Below are positions 2-12,451 of a DNA stretch of 12,451 bases, one piece after another (within the stretch, counting starts at the first letter, position 1; each line of letters starts with the position of its first letter). The position numbers were made by a program, and so were the translations under genes. Location: positions 1 to 12,451 of the forward strand of contig CAYZJZ010000028.1 of assembly GCA_964478905.1 (NCBI GenBank), written 5' to 3'. Below the pieces are notes generated by a model that was not told where the DNA came from, did not search any database, and saw only the letters and a program-made list of their open reading frames with translations. This DNA comes from an uncultured Eubacteriales bacterium. Its GTDB lineage: Bacteria; Bacillota; Clostridia; TANB77; RGIG9151.

Positions 2-1105
<1,104 letters not shown>

Positions 1106-4100: not shown

Positions 4101-4754
4101 GTTACAGTAAGTGACAACAAGAAAAAGCGTGAAGTTACAGTAACAGATCCGGACGGAGATGCAAAGACATATTTAATTCCTTTCGGTTCAAGATTAAAAG
4201 TTCGTGACGGAGACTATGTTGAAGCCGGAGATGAGTTAACAGAAGGTTCTGTAAACCCACACGATATTATTAGAATAAAGGGCGTTGACGGAGTTCAATT
4301 ATATATGCTTCGTGAAGTTCAAAAGGTTTATAGAATGCAAGGTGTTGATATCAATGATAAACACATCGAAGTAATTGTTCGTCAAATGCTTCGTAAGATT
4401 AAAATTGATGAAGCCGGAGATACAAACTTCTTACCTGGAATTTTGGTAGATATGTTTGAATTTGAAAGTGAAAACGAAAGAGTTGTAGCTGAAGGCGGAA
4501 CACCGGCTACCGGAAAACAAACATTACTTGGTATTACTAAAGCGGCTTTAACTACTGAATCTTTCTTATCAGCAGCATCATTCCAAGAAACAACAAGAGT
4601 TTTAACTGATGCAGCTATAAAAGGAAAAGTTGATCCATTAGTAGGACTTAAAGAAAACGTTATTATCGGTAAATTAATTCCTGCAGGAACAGGTATGTCA
4701 AGATATAAAGATATAAACATAAAAACAGTTAAAGATGACGAAATAATGGATTAA
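1134..4754 (+). CDS. rpoC: DNA-directed RNA polymerase subunit beta'
   Basis: The track ORF opens at 1089 inside rpoB. ATG 1134 ([24 protein letters not shown], the typical beta' N-terminus) sits 7 nt after GAGGAG (1121-1126). A Zn-binding [20 protein letters not shown] is present, as are the catalytic NADFDGDQM (2475-2501), the trigger-loop [10 protein letters not shown] and [17 protein letters not shown]. Stop TAA is at 4752-4754. Confidence 0.97.
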
Positions 4755-4784
4755 AAAAAGGTGGACTCAGGTCCACCTTTTTTA
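4753..4784. terminator. Bidirectional rho-independent terminator shared by rpoC (+) and the convergent small ORF (-)
   Basis: Perfect 7-bp GC-rich stem GGTGGAC (4760-4766) / GTCCACC (4771-4777) with a 4-nt loop TCAG. An A-run (4753-4759) precedes it and a T-run (4778-4783) follows, so a hairpin plus U-tract forms on both strands. The stop of the minus-strand ORF (4782-4784) overlaps the T-tract. Confidence 0.88.
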
Positions 4785-4943
4785 GTCTTTACATATAAAC
4801 GTTCCACAACAAGTTCCGTCAGATGTATGAGCTTTACCTGACATATTATTTACATCTAGTTGTTTTGCTGTACAAAAGTGATTATTCCAATATGTGCAAG
4901 TATCTACACTACAGTGAACCGGCATTTTATTTGGATTTCCCAT
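4782..4943 (-). CDS. Small cysteine-rich protein, DUF1540-like (53 aa); absent from the ORF track
   Basis: Hand translation of the minus strand gives MGNPNKMPVHCSVDTCTYWNNHFCTAKQLDVNNMSGKAHTSDGTCCGTFICKD*. GGAG (complement of 4953-4956) lies 9 nt upstream of ATG 4943-4941. An in-frame ATG at 4952-4950 abuts the SD and is less likely. The pattern C-x4-C-x7-C-x20-CC-x-TF matches my recollection of the DUF1540 (PF07561) signature of Firmicutes. The ORF ends in the bidirectional terminator. Confidence 0.72.
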   Translation of the reverse strand: MGNPNKMPVHCSVDTCTYWNNHFCTAKQLDVNNMSGKAHTSDGTCCGTFICKD

Positions 4944-4994
4944 ATAACTCATCTCCTTTTTCTTAGTTTGTACATTTTTTTATAAATATATGCT

Positions 4995-5059
4995 TAAGAT
5001 TCGTTACTATTAAGATATTGTCTTTTGTAAAACAATAAGATTCAATAGTAAATAAGATA
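4995..5059. repeat. Duplicated bipartite direct repeat (TAAGATTC-N8/9-TAAGATA, twice) in the divergent intergenic region; candidate operator
   Basis: TAAGATTC occurs at 4995-5002 and 5036-5043. TAAGATA occurs at 5011-5017 and 5053-5059. The intra-unit offset is 16-17 bp and the unit-to-unit offset is 41-42 bp. An 8-bp inverted repeat, TTACTATT (5004-5011) / AATAGTAA (5044-5051), is interleaved with them. Confidence 0.5.
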
Positions 5060-5081
5060 CAGTTAAAGTTTTATGGAAATA

Positions 5082-5109
5082 TTGACGAATATACACTTGG
5101 AAATATGTA
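5082..5109 (+). promoter_or_regulatory. Candidate sigma-A-type promoter for the NRPS gene
   Basis: TTGACG (5082-5087), a 16-nt spacer, then TATGTA (5104-5109). The -35 is good, but the -10 lacks the conserved final T, so this is weak. It lies about 15 nt upstream of the AAGGAGG RBS (5125-5131). Confidence 0.3.
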
Positions 5110-5139
5110 GTTTGTATCGAAACTAAGGAGGCAATGAAA

Positions 5140-8100
5140 ATGGATAAAAAAATGTATTTGTTATCACGTCCGCAAAAGACTATTTGGTATATGGAAAAGC
5201 TATACAAAGGCTCAGGAATGACCAATATTTGCGGTACTGTAAGATTTAAAGCAAAAGTTGATTTTGAATTGTTATATAAAGCGATTAATATTTTTGTCTC
5301 AAAAAATGATGCTATGCGTTTGAAAATTTTGGAAGATAATGGTGAACCATACCAATATGTAAAAGATTATCAAGAATATAAACCGAAATTTGTTGATTTT
5401 TCCGGTAAAACAAAAGAAGAATTTTACAGGTGGGAAGAGTATGAAAGTAGAAAACCGATAGATACTTCTGAAAACTTTTTGTTCGAATTTATTATGCTTA
5501 AATTTAGCGATAATGAAGGAGGATATTTTATAAAAGTTAATCATATAATAGGCGACGCTTGGAGTATTATGCAACTTGTAAGCGATGTAAAAGACATATA
5601 TTCTGAGTTAGTTTATGGCAATTTTAATGAATATGAAAAGCCTTCTTATTTAGATTTTGTAGATGCTGAAGAAGAATATTTTAATTCAAAACGTTATTCT
5701 AGCGATAAACAATATTGGGAAGAAAAATTAAAGGATTTTGAAGAAGTAACGGTACTAAAAGATAATGTAGGGGATAAAAGCTTTACTAAAGCTACGAGGA
5801 AGACATTTTTAGTTCCAGATAAATTAAGAAATAAGATGCTGTCTTTTTGTGATGAAAATAAAGTTTCCGAATATGCTTTATTTGTCGGAGCTATTGCGAT
5901 GTACATAAACAGAGTTAAAAATAAAGAAAATATAATTTTTGGAACGTCTTTGTTAAATAGAACAGGTGTAAAAGAAAAAGAAACCATAGGAATGTTTGCA
6001 AGTACTGCTGTGCCGCTTAAAGTTGATATTAAAGATGATGCTAATTTCGACACTTTTATAAAGCAAATTTCAAAGGAAATTTTGTCGGTATTAAGACACC
6101 AAAAATATCCGTATGATGAAATCTTAAAAATAGCTCAATGTGCTAATAAATCCACAGATAAGATATTTGATATAGTCCTTAATTACCAAAATGCAAAAGG
6201 AACAAAGGGCGTATTGGAGAAAGAAATTCCATATTCTACAAGGTGGAACTTTAATGGCGAACAAATAGAGTCTTTAATTATCAACATTAATGATAGAGAT
6301 AATGAAGGTAAATTGATAATAGATTATGATTTCTTAAATCATATGTTTTGTGATAAAGAAATTGAGTTTTTACATCAACATATTATAAATATTTTATGGC
6401 ATGCTTTAGATAATCCAAGTAAGTTGATTTCTAAACTTGAGATGCTTTCAGAAGATGAAAAAAATCAAATTTTATATGATTTTAATGATACAGAAGCTAG
6501 TTATAATGAAGAAATTACAATACATCAACTGTTTGAAGAAATGGCTAAAAAATATCCTGATAATATTGCTGTTAAATTTGAAGAAGAAAGTATTACATAT
6601 AAGGAATTAAATTATAGAGCAAACAGTCTAGCTAGGACTCTAAGAAAGTTGGGGTTAAAACGACAAGAGATTGTTACAGTTATTATGTATAAATCTATTA
6701 ACACAATAATTTCAACTTTGGCTATTTTAAAGGCTGGAGGAGCTTATTTACCGATTGATCCGGATTTTCCAAGTGACAGGAAAAAGTTTATGATTAGCGA
6801 TTGTAATTCTAAAATACTGCTTACAGAAAATACGTTAAAGGATAAAAACCCGTTTGATGGAAATGTAATTTGTTTGGATGATGAGAATGTATTTTGTGAG
6901 AATAAAGATAATTTAGAAAATATAAACGAACCAAGTGACTTATTGTATATAATTTACACGTCCGGGTCTACAGGAAATCCTAAAGGAGTTATGCTTGAAC
7001 ACAGGAATGTTGTAAGATTATTATTTAATAGTAAATTTGAATATGATTTTAACGAATCAGATATATGGACAATGTTCCATTCGTATTGTTTTGATTTTTC
7101 TGTATGGGAAATGTACGGAGCTTTATTATATGGAGGCAAACTTGTAATTATATCTAAAGAAACTTCAAAAGATTTGAATAAATTTGTGAAACTACTTAGA
7201 AAAGAGAAAGTTACGGTACTTAATCAAACTCCGGCTATGTTTTATAATGTTATTAATGAAGAACTGTTGTATGAAGATAGTTCACTAGATATAAGGTACG
7301 TAATCTTTGGTGGAGAAGCATTAAATCCAAGCAAATTAAAGCCTTTTAAAGATAAATATCCAAATTGTAAACTTATTAATATGTACGGAATAACTGAAAC
7401 CACAGTGCATGTTACATTTAAGGAGCTAACAGATGAAGATATAAAAATAGGAAAAAGCAATATAGGTAAGCCAATTCCAACTCTAAAAACATATATAATG
7501 GATAAAAATTTAAACCTTTTACCAGTTGGAATTCCGGGAGAAATTTGTGTTTCAGGTAGCGGAGTTGCCAGAGGTTATTTAAATCAAGTTGAGTTGACTA
7601 ATAAAAAATTTGTTGTAAATCCATATAATGCTAATGAAAGATTATACCGTTCCGGTGATTTGGGAAGATTTTACGCCAAGGGAGATATTGAATATTTAGG
7701 AAGAATAGATAATCAAGTAAAAGTAAGGGGCTTTAGAGTAGAAATAGGTGAAATTGAAAGAAACATTTTGAGTTTTGATGGAATAGAGGATACTGTTGTT
7801 GTTCCACGAAAAGATGAAAATGAAAAAAGTTATTTAGTAGCTTATATAGTATGTGAAAAAGAGATAAATATTCAAGAGTTAAAACTTCATTTACAGGATT
7901 TTATGCCTGTTTATATGGTACCATCTTATTTTGTTGTTATGGATAAATTGCCACTTACAGTAAACGGGAAAATAAATAGGAAAGAATTACCTGAACCTCA
8001 AAGAGAAATTGAAAATGATATTCCATTTGTTTCACCTAGAAATGAAACAGACGAAGCTTTGCAATTAGTTTTTTCAGAAGTATTAAAGATAGATAATATA

Positions 8101-9459
8101 GGAATAGATAATAATTTCTTTGATATGGGTGGAGATTCTTTGACAGTTATTCAAGCTTTAACAAAGTTATATAAATATAATTTTAAAATTACGGCAACAG
8201 ATTTTTATAAATATCCAACTATTAGACAACTAAGCGACAAGATAAATAATGAGGAAGAACAGGAAGAAGAAAATGAATTTTGTGAATATGCTAATGTTCC
8301 TCATTTAAATAAAACTGATAAGTTAACATTTAGAAAAATGGAAAATGTTTTAGTTACCGGTCCTACGGGATTTTTGGGTAGTCATATAGTAAAGAGTTTA
8401 TTAGATAATACAGATGCAAAAGTATACTGTTTAGTAAGAGGCAAGGATAGTCAAGAGTGTAAGGAGCGATTTGAAAAAATATTTAAATTCTATTTTAATG
8501 ATTTTAGCTATGAAAATAGAATTGAAATCGTAAAAGGCGATATTACTTTGCCTAATCTGGGAATAGAGCCTAAGTTATATGATATGCTTGGGAATTTGTT
8601 GGATAATATTATACATACTGCTGCTCTGGTTAAGTATTATGGAAAGTATTCTGAATTTGAGAAAATTAATATTGATGGAGTAAGAAATGTAATGACTTTT
8701 GCGAAAAACTATAACATAAAAATTAATCATATTTCTACTATTGGTATTTCCGGAAGTTACTTGGTTAGAAATAATATAAAATCTAAAGAACTCACAGAGC
8801 AAGACCTATTTGTTGGTCAAAATTATTCTGAAAATGCGTATGTTAAAACTAAATTTATAGCTGAAAATATGTTACTAAATGAAGTAAAAAATGGCTTAAA
8901 ATTAACTATATTTAGAATGGGTAACTTAACCGGAAGGTATGAAGACGGATATTTCCAAAGAAATGTAAATGACAATGCTTTTTATAATATATTGCGTTCT
9001 ATAATTGAACTAAAAAAAGTGTCTAGAGATATGGATGACGTTGAGGTAGAGCTTACACCTGTTGATATGGCTGCAAATTGTGTAGTTAATATTTCAAGAA
9101 CAAATGAGTGTGATTCTAGAATTTTTCATATAACGAATTATAAAGAACCTCATTTCGAAAAAATAAGAGATATGCTGGTAGAGCTTGGCTTTGAGATTAG
9201 TGTAGTAAGTAATGAAGAATTTAATAAATTTATAAAAGAAGTTTCTGAACGTGACGGAGAAAACGCTAGTCTTAGAGGAATAATTACAGATATAAACTCC
9301 GAAGGAAATTTAGATTACAATATACCGGTAAAAGCTACTGCTCATATTACAGAAGAATATCTTAAAATGTTAGGATTTTCTTGGCCGGATATAGAAATTG
9401 AATATATAAAGAAAATAGTGGATTATTTAAAAGGAATAGGCTATTTTTTGAATAAATAA
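5140..9459 (+). CDS. Single-module nonribosomal peptide synthetase, C-A(Thr)-T-R
   Basis: The ORF is 5134-9459. AAGGAGG (5125-5131) is only 2 nt from ATG 5134 and 8 nt from the in-frame ATG 5140, so 5140 is preferred; 5134 and 5152 are alternatives. All NRPS core motifs are present (see the domain features). Stop TAA is at 9457-9459. Confidence 0.95.
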   Translation: MDKKMYLLSRPQKTIWYMEKLYKGSGMTNICGTVRFKAKVDFELLYKAINIFVSKNDAMRLKILEDNGEPYQYVKDYQEYKPKFVDFSGKTKEEFYRWEEYESRKPIDTSENFLFEFIMLKFSDNEGGYFIKVNHIIGDAWSIMQLVSDVKDIYSELVYGNFNEYEKPSYLDFVDAEEEYFNSKRYSSDKQYWEEKLKDFEEVTVLKDNVGDKSFTKATRKTFLVPDKLRNKMLSFCDENKVSEYALFVGAIAMYINRVKNKENIIFGTSLLNRTGVKEKETIGMFASTAVPLKVDIKDDANFDTFIKQISKEILSVLRHQKYPYDEILKIAQCANKSTDKIFDIVLNYQNAKGTKGVLEKEIPYSTRWNFNGEQIESLIININDRDNEGKLIIDYDFLNHMFCDKEIEFLHQHIINILWHALDNPSKLISKLEMLSEDEKNQILYDFNDTEASYNEEITIHQLFEEMAKKYPDNIAVKFEEESITYKELNYRANSLARTLRKLGLKRQEIVTVIMYKSINTIISTLAILKAGGAYLPIDPDFPSDRKKFMISDCNSKILLTENTLKDKNPFDGNVICLDDENVFCENKDNLENINEPSDLLYIIYTSGSTGNPKGVMLEHRNVVRLLFNSKFEYDFNESDIWTMFHSYCFDFSVWEMYGALLYGGKLVIISKETSKDLNKFVKLLRKEKVTVLNQTPAMFYNVINEELLYEDSSLDIRYVIFGGEALNPSKLKPFKDKYPNCKLINMYGITETTVHVTFKELTDEDIKIGKSNIGKPIPTLKTYIMDKNLNLLPVGIPGEICVSGSGVARGYLNQVELTNKKFVVNPYNANERLYRSGDLGRFYAKGDIEYLGRIDNQVKVRGFRVEIGEIERNILSFDGIEDTVVVPRKDENEKSYLVAYIVCEKEINIQELKLHLQDFMPVYMVPSYFVVMDKLPLTVNGKINRKELPEPQREIENDIPFVSPRNETDEALQLVFSEVLKIDNIGIDNNFFDMGGDSLTVIQALTKLYKYNFKITATDFYKYPTIRQLSDKINNEEEQEEENEFCEYANVPHLNKTDKLTFRKMENVLVTGPTGFLGSHIVKSLLDNTDAKVYCLVRGKDSQECKERFEKIFKFYFNDFSYENRIEIVKGDITLPNLGIEPKLYDMLGNLLDNIIHTAALVKYYGKYSEFEKINIDGVRNVMTFAKNYNIKINHISTIGISGSYLVRNNIKSKELTEQDLFVGQNYSENAYVKTKFIAENMLLNEVKNGLKLTIFRMGNLTGRYEDGYFQRNVNDNAFYNILRSIIELKKVSRDMDDVEVELTPVDMAANCVVNISRTNECDSRIFHITNYKEPHFEKIRDMLVELGFEISVVSNEEFNKFIKEVSERDGENASLRGIITDINSEGNLDYNIPVKATAHITEEYLKMLGFSWPDIEIEYIKKIVDYLKGIGYFLNK
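5155..6435 (+). other. Condensation (C) domain, probable starter/lipoinitiation type
   Basis: C1 LSRPQKTIWY; C2 KNDAMRLKI; C3 VNHIIGDAWS (5539-5559, that is NHxxxDA rather than HHxxxDG); C4 YLDF; C5 IGMFASTAVPLK; C6 HQKYPY. Blocks KNDAMRLKILEDNGEPYQYV, LSFCDENKVS, NRTGVKEKETIGMFASTAVPLK and LRHQKYPY closely resemble my recollection of the N-terminal C domain of surfactin synthetase SrfAA. That comparison is from memory and is not a computed alignment. Confidence 0.8.
6514..7989 (+). other. Adenylation (A) domain, predicted threonine-specific
   Basis: A3 YTSGSTGNPKG (6955-6987); A4 FDFSVWE (7090-7110); A5 NMYGITET; A6 GEICVSGSGVARGY; A7 YRSGDLGR; A8 GRIDNQVKVRGFRVEIGEIE; A9 MPVYMVPS; A10 NGKINR (7963-7980). 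By-eye alignment to GrsA-PheA gives the pocket residues D235, F236, W239 (FDFSVW), N278 (VLNQTP), I299 and G301 (VIFGGE), M322 (NMYG), V330 and H331 (TTVHV) and K517. Together these read DFWNIGMVHK. Confidence 0.85.
8035..8250 (+). other. Thiolation / peptidyl carrier (T) domain
   Basis: FFDMGGDSL core, with the phosphopantetheinyl Ser codon at 8137-8139, followed by an acidic linker NNEEEQEEENE. Confidence 0.88.
8341..9456 (+). other. Terminal thioester reductase (R) domain, SDR fold
   Basis: NAD(P)H-binding VLVTGPTGFLGSH (TGxxGxxG, 8356-8379), HTAA, ISTIG, catalytic YVKTK (YxxxK, Tyr codon 8839-8841) and a C-terminal substrate-binding subdomain ending ...LGFSWPDIEIEYIKKIVDYL. Confidence 0.88.
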
Positions 9460-9473
9460 TACAAAAGAAAAGA

Positions 9474-11450
9474 GTGATAATTGTGAAAAAGAAGTCTGAT
9501 GCACTTGATATTATAAATGTTTATAATATTATAATTATTGTACTTGGAACGGTGTTTTATTTCCTATTACCAACTTTATTAAATTTTGCACCGGGTTCAT
9601 ATAATAGCTATTTTGAAACTCAGATAGATGCCGGAATGAATTATGTTGTTCAATTTGTTTTAGCTATATTTGCAGTTATTGTTATTGTAGATATTTTTGT
9701 GTGGTTTCAGTTTAAAGAGATTAAAGGATTGAATAAAATTACTGAAAATAGAGATAAAATAGTAAGAATTAAAACAAAGTGCTTTAGACTTCCTTTTCGA
9801 TTATATTTGTATGAGATAAGTATAATTCCGGTAATAATTGCAGCGGTTTTATGGATAACTAAGACGGAGATAGGGTTAATTGTAAAGATTACTGTATTAA
9901 TATTTTTGTTTGCCACAGTTCTTTCTATATGTGCATATATTTTTACTAAAAACAAAATGAAAAAACTTTTTAGTAGAATAAATAATTTTGAAATATGTGG
10001 AGGAAAATCTAATCTAAATTTATCTACTAAGACATTTCTCCAAATTTTTCCGCTTTTTTTAGTTATTGCTGTGTTTTTAGCGTTTTTAGGATATGCAAGA
10101 TTGGTATATGAAAAAGGTATAATAAGGTTTGAGGAAACAAAAACTAAATTATGTGAAAATATACCGGCAACTTTAGAAAGCGAAAAAGAATTAATTGACA
10201 GTATAAATAAAATATCTTTTTCTAATATTGAAAACGAAATATTTATAATAAAAAATGATGAAGTAATGTTTTATGAAGGTAGTCCACTAAGTAGTTTTTT
10301 CGTAAAATATGCAACAGTTTTAGGCAAAGAATATGATGGGCATTTATATGACTATTATGGTTCAGATATTCAAGGAACGGCGATATATAGAGAGATAGAA
10401 GATGTTAATTATATAGTTGGCGTAAAGTATAATTTAGCTTCAAGTGAGATAATATTAATTTTGGTTGAAAGTATTGTTTTTATGTTGATTTTATCGGCAT
10501 TTGTACTTGTGTTTTTATGTAAAGATATAGCTGATGATATTAGTATGGTAGGAAACTATTTATTCAAACTTTCTGAGCAATCAAGTATTGATTATAATAA
10601 GAAACTTCCTGTTACTTCTAATGACGAAATAGGGGAGCTTGTTATTGCTTTTAATAAAATCTTGGACTTAGAAAAGAACAATATAGAGACTATGACACGA
10701 AATCAAGAAATTTTGGTTGAACAGGAGCGTTTGTCGTCTTTAGGTCAATTAATCGGAGGTATTGCTCATAACTTAAAAACTCCGATAATGTCTATTTCCG
10801 GAGCTTTAGAAGGTATTGAAGACTTAATTAAAGAGTATGATGAATCTATTGAAGATAATCAAGTTACTAAAGAGGATCATCATCAAATTGCGGGAGAAAT
10901 GGCTGAATGGATAACTAAAATAAGACCGTATTTATCGTATATGACTGAAGTTATTGATGCGGTAAAAGGACAAGCCGTTTCTATGAACGCATCTACTGTT
11001 GGAGAGTTTTCAGCGGAGGAGCTTATCGCAAGGACCCAAATTTTAATGAAAAATGAGTTAAAAAGGCGTCATTGTAATTTGAATTTAGACCTAAATATAA
11101 GTGAAAATACCCATATAAAGGGTGAAATAAGTGCTATTGTTCAAGTTATGGATAATTTAATCATAAATGCAATGGATGCTTATGGAGAAAATGGTGGAAA
11201 TATAGATATTAAAGTTAGAGAGGATAGCGAAAAGATTTATATAGAAGTAGCTGACCTTGCAGGCGGAATAGCCGAAACTGTAAAAGATAAGTTATTTAAG
11301 GAAATGATAACTTCTAAAGGTAAAAACGGAACAGGGTTAGGACTTTATATGTGTTATTCTACTATTAAAGGTAAGTTCGATGGAGATATGTGGTTTGAAA
11401 GTAAAGAAGGTGTTGGAACAACTTTCCATATTGTACTTAATAGATTATAG
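9474..11450 (+). CDS. Membrane sensor histidine kinase (6 TM, extracytoplasmic loop, HAMP, HisKA, HATPase_c); no cognate response regulator in the window
   Basis: Non-ATG start: GTG 9474 or GTG 9483. The first ATG is codon 55, inside the predicted TM2, and the SD-like element is only weak (GAAAAGAG, 9466-9473). Hydrophobic segments fall at about aa 16-37, 56-79, 108-129, 133-157, 187-209 and 325-349, and the Lys/Arg-rich loops fit positive-inside topology. HAMP-like NDEIGELVIAFNKIL is present. The H-box is LGQLIGGIAHNLKTPI (His codon 10767-10769), the N-box DNLIINAMDA, G1 DLAGGI and G2 GTGLGLYM. Stop TAG is at 11448-11450. Confidence 0.9.
   Translation: MIIVKKKSDALDIINVYNIIIIVLGTVFYFLLPTLLNFAPGSYNSYFETQIDAGMNYVVQFVLAIFAVIVIVDIFVWFQFKEIKGLNKITENRDKIVRIKTKCFRLPFRLYLYEISIIPVIIAAVLWITKTEIGLIVKITVLIFLFATVLSICAYIFTKNKMKKLFSRINNFEICGGKSNLNLSTKTFLQIFPLFLVIAVFLAFLGYARLVYEKGIIRFEETKTKLCENIPATLESEKELIDSINKISFSNIENEIFIIKNDEVMFYEGSPLSSFFVKYATVLGKEYDGHLYDYYGSDIQGTAIYREIEDVNYIVGVKYNLASSEIILILVESIVFMLILSAFVLVFLCKDIADDISMVGNYLFKLSEQSSIDYNKKLPVTSNDEIGELVIAFNKILDLEKNNIETMTRNQEILVEQERLSSLGQLIGGIAHNLKTPIMSISGALEGIEDLIKEYDESIEDNQVTKEDHHQIAGEMAEWITKIRPYLSYMTEVIDAVKGQAVSMNASTVGEFSAEELIARTQILMKNELKRRHCNLNLDLNISENTHIKGEISAIVQVMDNLIINAMDAYGENGGNIDIKVREDSEKIYIEVADLAGGIAETVKDKLFKEMITSKGKNGTGLGLYMCYSTIKGKFDGDMWFESKEGVGTTFHIVLNRL
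10101..10445 (+). other. Predicted extracytoplasmic sensor loop of the kinase (about 115 aa between TM5 and TM6)
   Basis: The loop is flanked by hydrophobic helices and is mixed alpha/beta-looking (..IFIIKNDEVMFYEGS..GTAIYREIEDVNYIVGVKY..), which is compatible with a small PDC/Cache-like fold. The fold assignment is inference only. Confidence 0.45.
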
Positions 11451-11590: not shown

Positions 11591-12451
11591 ATGAAAAAAA
11601 TACTTTTTACCGGTTCAGGTGTTGCACTTGTTACACCGTTTACAAATGACGGAATTAATTTTGATGTCCTAAAAGAGTTAATTGACTTTCATATTGAAAA
11701 TGAAACTGATGCAATTGTTGTTTGCGGAACTACTGGAGAACCTTCTACTATGACAGCGGAAGAATGGAAATCTGTTATAGATTTTACTGTAAAAAATGTT
11801 AATGGCCGTGTAACTGTAATTGCCGGAACTGGATCTAATGATACAAATGAAGCTGAAAGAAGAACAAAAGTTGCAAAGGAGCTAGGCGTGGACGGGGCTT
11901 TGGTTGTGACTCCATATTATAACAAAACTACACAACGAGGAATTATTGAGCATTATAAATGTATAAACGAAGTAGGTATTCCTGTTATAGTTTATAATGT
12001 GCCGTCTAGAACAGGTCTTAATATAAATTCAAAAACAGCTTATGAACTTTCAAAGTTAGAAAATATCGTTGGCATAAAAGAAGCGAGCGGAAATTTTTCA
12101 CAAATTGCTGAGATAGTTTCATTATGTGGCGATGAGTTACATATCTATTCCGGAAATGATGACCAAGTTTTACCTATACTTGCTTTAGGTGGGAAAGGGG
12201 TTATATCTGTTTCGGCGAATGTAATTCCGAACGATACTCACCTTATGGTAAAGAGCTTTTTTGATGGCGACATTGAAACAAGTAGAGAGTTACAGCTAAA
12301 GGCGATAGATTTAATTAATACTTTGTTTTTTGAAACTAATCCAATTCCGGTAAAAGAAGCAGTTCGCCAAATTGGTTTTGATGTTGGAAAGTGCAGGTTA
12401 CCGCTTATAGATGTAGATGAGAAAGGTCAATTAAAGATTTCAGAAGCTTTA
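11591..12451 (+). CDS. dapA: 4-hydroxy-tetrahydrodipicolinate synthase (3' end outside the window)
   Basis: It is absent from the ORF track because it runs off the window. AAGGAGGG (11577-11584) lies 6 nt before ATG 11591. The translation MKKILFTGSGVALVTPFTNDGINFD...VVCGTTGEPSTMT...TPYYNK...VYNVPSRTG...VGIKEASGN shows the DapA GTTGE, YN-P-RT and Schiff-base Lys (codon 12077-12079) motifs. The frame stays open to 12451. Confidence 0.95.
   Translation, partial: MKKILFTGSGVALVTPFTNDGINFDVLKELIDFHIENETDAIVVCGTTGEPSTMTAEEWKSVIDFTVKNVNGRVTVIAGTGSNDTNEAERRTKVAKELGVDGALVVTPYYNKTTQRGIIEHYKCINEVGIPVIVYNVPSRTGLNINSKTAYELSKLENIVGIKEASGNFSQIAEIVSLCGDELHIYSGNDDQVLPILALGGKGVISVSANVIPNDTHLMVKSFFDGDIETSRELQLKAIDLINTLFFETNPIPVKEAVRQIGFDVGKCRLPLIDVDEKGQLKISEAL

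Follow-up and report, generated by a model that had tools for sequence, protein, structure and literature searches.

Why a sensor histidine kinase should be encoded directly behind a nonribosomal peptide synthetase (NRPS), and whether it responds to what that enzyme makes, are the questions raised by a stretch of 12,451 nucleotides (nt) from an uncultured Eubacteriales bacterium. This stretch (CAYZJZ010000028.1), hereafter the window, is the whole of contig C28 in the metagenome-assembled genome (MAG) G000, which comprises 1.31 Mb and is 96.5 % complete. A first-pass annotation of the window had taken the two genes for a producer/sensor unit in which an orphan kinase signals through a regulator encoded elsewhere. 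Comparisons with related genomes show that the gene unit is conserved across hundreds of species of Clostridia, and they indicate that the synthetase and the sensing half of the kinase have been exchanged together between relatives, as is the case in systems that pair a self-made signal with its receptor.

Relatives were sought in one genome per species, and at least 583 stretches encode them; the counts of synteny given here refer to the best 80 of these, among which 78 loci are informative for the NRPS and 70 for a response regulator. In every one of the 78, each from another species, an NRPS with condensation, adenylation, thiolation and reductase domains (C-A-T-R) directly adjoins the kinase gene, and this adjacency is seen at kinase identities of 70, 62, 47 and 40 % and down to 36 %. 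The flanking genes vary between loci, both orders of the NRPS and kinase genes occur, and the gaps from stop to start are mostly between -26 and +60 nt; in-frame fusion of the two genes, considered for loci L065 and L080, was ruled out by the presence of stop codons. Synteny of the pair in related genomes, which had been set beforehand as one of two tests of the producer/sensor proposal, is thereby borne out, and the NRPS and the kinase very probably constitute one functional unit. A third gene, encoding a regulator of the type REC-(DUF3369)-HD-GYP, adjoins the kinase gene in 61 of the 70 informative loci (87 %).

What sets this unit apart is the manner in which its parts vary. The specificity (Stachelhaus) codes of the A domains, as read from alignment to a GrsA segment, differ by locus, being of the Thr type in the window and elsewhere of the Ser, Asn or Gly-like type or one of several that are unassigned. 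A comparison of the separate regions shows much stronger conservation in the kinase core than in the sensor half, the latter of which follows the NRPS in its variation. Across 72 loci, sensor identity is associated with A-domain identity at a given kinase core (partial Mantel r 0.86, p 0.0005), and the kinase core is not associated with the A domain at a given sensor (r 0.00). Among pairs with cores at least 88 % identical, those with the same code have sensors that are 68-97 % identical, and those with different codes have sensors that are only 23-52 % identical. In DNA alignments, five pairs of species whose flanks are 78-99 % identical lose alignability altogether from the start of the NRPS to about residue 365-395 of the kinase, and in related species the kinase core remains 88-100 % identical despite an NRPS/sensor block that cannot be aligned. 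Loci L009 and L029, for example, share a C domain (92 %) and a kinase core (100 %) but differ in A (42 %), T (52 %), R (42 %) and sensor (about 50 %); L009 has a Ser-type A-T segment that is 75-82 % identical to those of L012 and L030, together with a diverged R domain and sensor. The core of the window's own kinase is 93-94 % identical to those of its closest relatives, L009 with its swapped cassette included. Thus, close relatives display a pherotype-like pattern, with a variable block of NRPS and sensor beside a conserved kinase core and regulator, and it is this co-variation of NRPS type with sensor half that lends the proposal of a producer/sensor unit its support, albeit indirectly. Base composition fits a cassette boundary as well, with a G+C content of 28-29 % in the NRPS, 26 % in the sensor and 32.8 % in the kinase core, as compared with 32.0 % in the genome; however, since DNA coding for membrane segments is generally AT-rich, the low values are not taken as a sign of transfer.

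In most of these pairs the exchanged parts are neighbours, and hence the two types of the module found in Dehalobacter, in which they are not, are of special interest. One type, with the code DILQMGMVW, is present in L038 and in Dehalobacter restrictus DSM 9455, and the other, with DIAQLTLIW, in two genomes, that of strain 4CP among them. The types differ in two patches, i.e. the A-domain pocket at about residues 660-830 (44-78 % identity) and the sensor at residues 1-350 (approximately 67 %), and are 90-100 % identical in residues 1-650 of the NRPS and in the kinase core. Some 550 mostly conserved residues separate the patches, the T-R portion being about 80-100 % identical barring two short dips. 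Of 24 pairs in which T-R is conserved, the Dehalobacter pair is the only one to differ in code, and its sensors are the least alike, at 66 % identity vs 77-97 % in the others. The cultured Dehalobacter hold the full module of NRPS, kinase and HD-GYP regulator (L038, L175, which is the chromosome of D. restrictus DSM 9455, L040 and L176). Elsewhere in the Dehalobacter family, L178, L179 and L180 encode kinases of 614-632 amino acids (aa) with cores that are 63-73 % identical and sensors that cannot be aligned, and even so a C-A-T-R NRPS, though one of a different type, precedes each of these kinases.

If the unit is a signalling one, then the kinase needs a partner. The window encodes no response regulator, and the gene after the kinase, starting at 11591, is dapA; the first-pass annotation had likewise seen dapA, and no regulator gene, follow the kinase. 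Yet the kinase is an orphan by position only, because the genome encodes, on contig C34, an orthologue of the kinase-adjacent regulators. This protein is the only one of the REC-DUF3369-HD-GYP type in the genome and shares 59 % identity with one of the kinase-adjacent proteins. Members of the nearest clade (kinase at least 52 % identical to that of the window) lack a regulator gene beside the kinase, and four relatives of which this is true each keep a single orthologue elsewhere (96, 94, 75 and 71 % identity), which in L111 sits among housekeeping genes; the regulator gene has been relocated in the window's clade. The C34 protein is the likely partner of the kinase. The expectation of a regulator encoded at a distance therefore held, although not the OmpR or NarL type foreseen for it. 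The remaining two-component inventory includes two OmpR-type pairs and one NarL-type regulator on a 2.4-kb contig. A fragment of an AgrC/ComD-like (HPK10-type) kinase, 270 aa in length (G000 C189:49-861, on a 1.8-kb contig), may point to a second, peptide-type signalling system in the genome.

The C34 regulator consists of REC, DUF3369 and HD_5/HD domains, retains the HD, HHExxDGxGYP and RxY[K/R] motifs and has no DNA-binding output domain. Proteins of this build form the 'RpfY' family, a member of which, VCA0210, hydrolyses cyclic di-GMP (c-di-GMP) (bioRxiv 10.1101/2021.11.05.467447). The genome encodes one GGDEF and two HD-GYP proteins, four c-di-GMP-I riboswitches (listed with the other features in Table 1) and two PilZ proteins, so that an output by way of c-di-GMP is plausible. 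One of the riboswitches precedes the gene for a secreted protein that bears a zincin motif (HExxH), and another that for a signal-peptide protein with acidic repeats, an arrangement that recalls other Clostridia, where surface proteins and proteases are under riboswitch control.

As to what the synthetase makes, it is a single module with an MxcG-like architecture (NCBIfam, E 4.5e-179) and intact core motifs, namely C3, A3/A8/A10, the serine of the T domain and the GxxGxxG/YxxxK motifs of the R domain. Its C3 motif reads NHIIGDA (window positions 5539-5559) vs the family consensus HH[LI]IxD[AG], the first histidine being replaced in some members of the family only. The predicted product is an N-acyl-threonine aldehyde or alcohol; the pyrazine that had also been suggested finds no support, because a single C-A-T-R module better fits an N-acyl amino aldehyde or alcohol. 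A gene resembling acyl-CoA or acyl-AMP ligases adjoins the NRPS in 28 of the 80 loci (within L042-L104), in nearly all of which it lies about 200-400 nt upstream on the opposite strand, i.e. divergently, and the genome of the window has four homologues of this gene away from the NRPS. Loci L025 and L045 also hold an acyl carrier protein, and L025, L038, L040 and L049 hold a phosphopantetheinyl transferase (PPTase). Neighbours of these three kinds fit an N-acylated product.

Taken together, the module would have three parts, namely the reductase-terminated NRPS, a kinase with six transmembrane (TM) segments and a HAMP-like linker, and the REC-DUF3369-HD-GYP regulator. The NRPS would load threonine, N-acylate it by means of its N-terminal C domain and release an N-acyl-threonine aldehyde or alcohol reductively. 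Judging from the co-variation, this lipid-like product would act on the variable membrane and extracytoplasmic half of the kinase, the conserved core of which would then, as synteny in other species suggests, phosphorylate the HD-GYP regulator. The resulting change in c-di-GMP hydrolysis might be read out by the four riboswitches and the two PilZ proteins. Such a loop could serve cell-to-cell signalling or autocrine feedback alike.

That the kinase responds to the product of the NRPS beside it is a reading towards which we lean with modest confidence, and several points weigh against it. Most of the swapped tracts are contiguous and stop where strong conservation sets in, with the kinase core, and therefore co-replacement could reflect the places where crossovers are permitted and not a functional match; moreover, rapid evolution is common to the sensor halves of kinases at large. 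Dehalobacter provides the only case in which the linkage is broken, and, since it represents a single evolutionary event, it is supportive rather than decisive. The loci with the kinase before the NRPS (L025, L036 and L119-L123) are all of the Ser type, have approximately 70 % DNA identity and display no clean swaps; L120 and L121 share a similarity of sensor and A domain that is absent from L123, at equal cores, but this is a weak hint only. The sole PPTase found in the genome is of the AcpS type (124 aa, G000 C13:14561-14905), a search for an Sfp-type enzyme in the 96.5 % complete MAG found none, and activation of the T domain is consequently unproven; nor is there an acyl-donor gene in the window. 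The regulator gene is not adjacent in nine of the 70 informative loci or in the window itself, and that the NRPS and kinase genes presumably share one mRNA is something that we only infer. The main rival explanation, which we consider rather unlikely, makes use of the first of these points. It grants that the genes belong together but not as ligand and receptor: the kinase would sense some other membrane or external cue and set c-di-GMP, the joint swap would be hitch-hiking, and the NRPS would merely be a co-expressed effector that makes, for example, a protease-inhibiting aldehyde or an envelope lipid. Hitch-hiking is favoured by the contiguous swapped tracts of five out of six pairs that were aligned at the DNA level, by the variable left edge of the tracts, which lies at the NRPS start in most pairs but at the C/A boundary in L009, and by a sensor that outpaces the core even under the same code (70 % vs 92 % in L012/L030). 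It is harder to square with Dehalobacter, where the A pocket and the sensor changed while the T-R portion between them stayed mostly 80-100 % identical, and where the only changed-code pair among the 24 with conserved T-R is the one with the lowest sensor identity; and co-expression does not call for an adjacency that persists across hundreds of species, whichever of the two genes comes first.

Two other explanations carry still less weight. The direction of control might be reversed, with the kinase and HD-GYP regulator, or c-di-GMP itself, controlling the NRPS, and the product having no role in signalling. Although a cue that governs production had been the alternative offered in the first-pass annotation, and the genome does possess the c-di-GMP machinery for this, we judge it improbable, as the regulator is without a DNA-binding output, none of the c-di-GMP riboswitches found lies on the window's contig, and the tracking of A-domain type by the sensor half would be left unexplained. 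Furthermore, co-transcription of the kinase from behind the NRPS, if it occurs, would preclude a role as the primary switch of that gene. Least credible of all, and in our estimate very nearly negligible, is chance adjacency, by which the kinase would be an ordinary orphan, e.g. a sporulation kinase of the Clostridia type that acts on Spo0A. The genome does have three Spo0A-like genes, none of which has an adjacent kinase, and the window's kinase has no regulator beside it. However, the direct neighbourhood of NRPS and kinase in 78 of 78 loci excludes a chance association, the regulator adjoins the kinase in most loci, and core (93-94 % identity with the closest relatives) and regulator (94-96 %) are conserved in step with one another; both the chance and the sporulation-kinase readings were rejected on synteny.

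The kinase itself is a class I (HisKA-type) sensor histidine kinase. Pfam recognizes HATPase_c at 65 bits and HisKA at 25.5 bits, just below the cut-off of 26.9, and residues of the H, N, G1, F and G2 boxes (His432, N561/N565, D594/G598, F608 and G619/G621/G623) are invariant in 89 homologues. The AlphaFold model has a confidence score (pLDDT) of 79.8 for the whole protein and of 88.0 for the extracytoplasmic domain modelled alone, and by Foldseek its core matches the cytoplasmic domains of ZraS, WalK, CpxA and HK853. No Pfam match to HAMP occurs in the window's kinase, but PF00672 is found in many homologues, and the model has a helix-gap-helix at residues 324-457. A fold search with the extracytoplasmic domain gave no match in the PDB at E <= 0.001, the weak matches being mainly to PAS/PDC-like periplasmic sensors of kinases (CpxA, CzcS and CqsR).

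At the junction of the two genes, the first-pass annotation was right in finding them on the same strand, and no terminator separates them, but the gap, given there as 14 nt, is probably 23 nt. The start codon is a GTG, as had been said, and most likely the second in-frame one, at 9483, rather than that at 9474, because the ATG of the three closest relatives aligns with it and because GTG 9474 sits within a conserved stretch, GAAAAGAGTGA, that resembles a Shine-Dalgarno (SD) sequence; the protein would then have 655 aa. This SD element, previously called weak, is better described as extended yet degenerate. No terminator-like site was found in or near the gap, and the predicted fold of the junction is weak (-8.9 kcal/mol, an A/U-rich stem without a U-tract) in comparison with that of the rpoC terminator. 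Promoter-like matches in this AT-rich DNA number 35 vs 44 expected from shuffles, so that an internal promoter is neither shown nor excluded. The gene order on the contig is rpoB', rpoC, terminator, DUF1540 gene (on the reverse strand), NRPS, kinase and dapA. The rpoC terminator overlaps the stop of the convergent DUF1540 gene. By tblastn, a homologue of the latter, 70-94 % identical, is present at every locus with a kinase at least 62 % identical and at none of the others; beyond the closest clade, it does not go with the NRPS-kinase pair. The region between the DUF1540 and NRPS genes is the sole non-coding stretch 5' of both NRPS and kinase and is presumed to act as promoter/operator.

Table 1. 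Features of the NRPS-kinase locus and of its genome. Positions are those of the window unless a contig of G000 is named; aa, residues of the protein concerned, with those of the kinase counted from GTG 9474.
Feature	Position	Strand	Basis or remark
Bidirectional rpoC terminator	4754-4783		-18.9 kcal/mol, z -6.4; A-run, stem, T-run
Cys-rich DUF1540 gene, 53 aa, divergent from NRPS	4782..4943	-	PF07561 in relatives
Pre-NRPS intergenic region, presumed operon promoter/operator	4944..5133	+	Ribosome-binding site AAGGAGG precedes ATG 5134
NRPS, 1441 aa	5134..9459	+	Pfam, NCBIfam; stop TAA 9457-9459
NRPS C domain	aa 6-447		Pfam/NCBIfam
NRPS A domain	aa 467-946		Stachelhaus code DFWNIGMVH = Thr
NRPS T domain	aa 975-1035		Pfam/NCBIfam
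NRPS thioester reductase (R) domain	aa 1071-1437		Pfam/NCBIfam
NRPS-kinase junction, 23 nt	9460..9482	+	SD-like GAAAAGAGTGA; no terminator
Sensor histidine kinase, 655 aa from GTG 9483 (658 aa if from 9474)	9483..11450	+	
Variable sensor half of kinase	9525..10505	+	Hydropathy, AlphaFold
TM1-5 of kinase	aa 18-36, 58-76, 110-128, 135-153, 188-206		Hydropathy
TM6 of kinase	aa 326-344		Hydropathy
Extracytoplasmic alpha/beta domain, ~118 aa	aa 207-325		Hydropathy and model
HAMP-like linker, aa 345-410	10506..10703	+	Right edge of swapped block in related pairs
Conserved kinase core, DHp with His432 (10767-10769) and CA/ATP-binding domain	10704..11450	+	
c-di-GMP-I riboswitches	G000 C148:2288-2371, C157:2369-2453, C22:13355-13439, C94:561-650		77-84 bits
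Spo0A-type regulators, two	G000 C1 (29013-29753), C49 (5393-6160)		
Third Spo0A-like regulator	G000 C38 (2471-3157)		Divergent Spo0A_C

The module has counterparts among known signalling systems but belongs to none of the families to which these give their names, i.e. Rpf/DSF (diffusible signal factor), agr/comQXPA and Vfm. The Rpf/DSF system of Xanthomonas comprises the synthase RpfF, the sensor kinase RpfC and the REC-HD-GYP regulator RpfG. As in that system, a synthase is clustered with a multi-TM kinase, the partner is a receiver-HD-GYP phosphodiesterase, and a self-made lipid-like molecule would be read out as c-di-GMP turnover. In contrast to it, the synthase is a C-A-T-R NRPS and not a crotonase-type RpfF, the kinase has HisKA and HATPase_c only, where RpfC has receiver and HPt domains as well, and the regulator, encoded at another locus and in a lineage of Clostridia, has an extra GAF-like DUF3369, which places it in the 'RpfY' architecture. 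The agrBDCA locus of staphylococci and the comQXPA locus of Bacillus subtilis are pherotype quorum-sensing loci of Firmicutes, and with these the module shares a hypervariable block made up of the signal-making gene and the sensor half, with variants among close relatives. Here, however, a non-ribosomal signal would take the place of the processed ribosomal peptide, a c-di-GMP phosphodiesterase forms the output in place of a DNA-binding regulator, and specificity between the variants is putative. In its C-A-T-R order and reductive release, from which the prediction of an aldehyde or alcohol follows, the NRPS resembles those of the MxcG type and the reductase-terminated ones of gut Clostridia, the latter reportedly the subject of a 2017 paper in Cell by Guo et al. 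Such NRPSs have been described as siderophore or protease-inhibitor pathways, and no report was found in which one is accompanied by a kinase and an HD-GYP regulator of its own.

Among non-ribosomal systems, the closest precedent is Vfm of Dickeya, in which a polymorphism of A-domain specificity defines groups of signal analogues and transduction is by a two-component system (Hugouvieux-Cotte-Pattat et al. 2022, PMC9306890). Polymorphic A-domain specificity in the biosynthesis genes and the link to a two-component system are common to both. Vfm differs in that the polymorphism linked to that of the A domain affects the ABC permease VfmG and not the sensor of a kinase, and in that it is a system of 26 genes, with a DNA-binding regulator, in a Gram-negative plant pathogen (PMC9306890). 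For the module of NRPS, kinase and HD-GYP regulator as a whole, no description was found in the literature searched.

Should the kinase indeed respond to the NRPS product, the module would represent a form of chemical signalling that is widespread among anaerobic Firmicutes and absent from the literature searched, and would tie an enzyme of secondary metabolism directly to c-di-GMP. It would also give a function to many of the "cryptic" one-module NRPS genes of gut and rumen bacteria, and would explain why a 4.3-kb NRPS is kept in a reduced genome of 1.3 Mb. A further-reaching and more tentative idea, which we hold to be possible but somewhat doubtful, is that these are 'private' non-ribosomal signals of Clostridia: the Thr, Ser, Asn and Gly-like variants of the NRPS would each make a different N-acyl amino aldehyde or alcohol that is recognized by the matching sensor only, NRPS and sensor, or A pocket and sensor, being swapped on a fixed c-di-GMP backbone of kinase core and HD-GYP regulator. 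If true, this would span the gut, rumen and organohalide-respiring Clostridia. For annotation, the "orphan" kinases of this family become assignable to a REC-DUF3369-HD-GYP partner even where that partner is encoded elsewhere. The system is testable, both in the cultured D. restrictus DSM 9455 and by means of the natural pairs of variants, Thr vs Ser and the two types of Dehalobacter.

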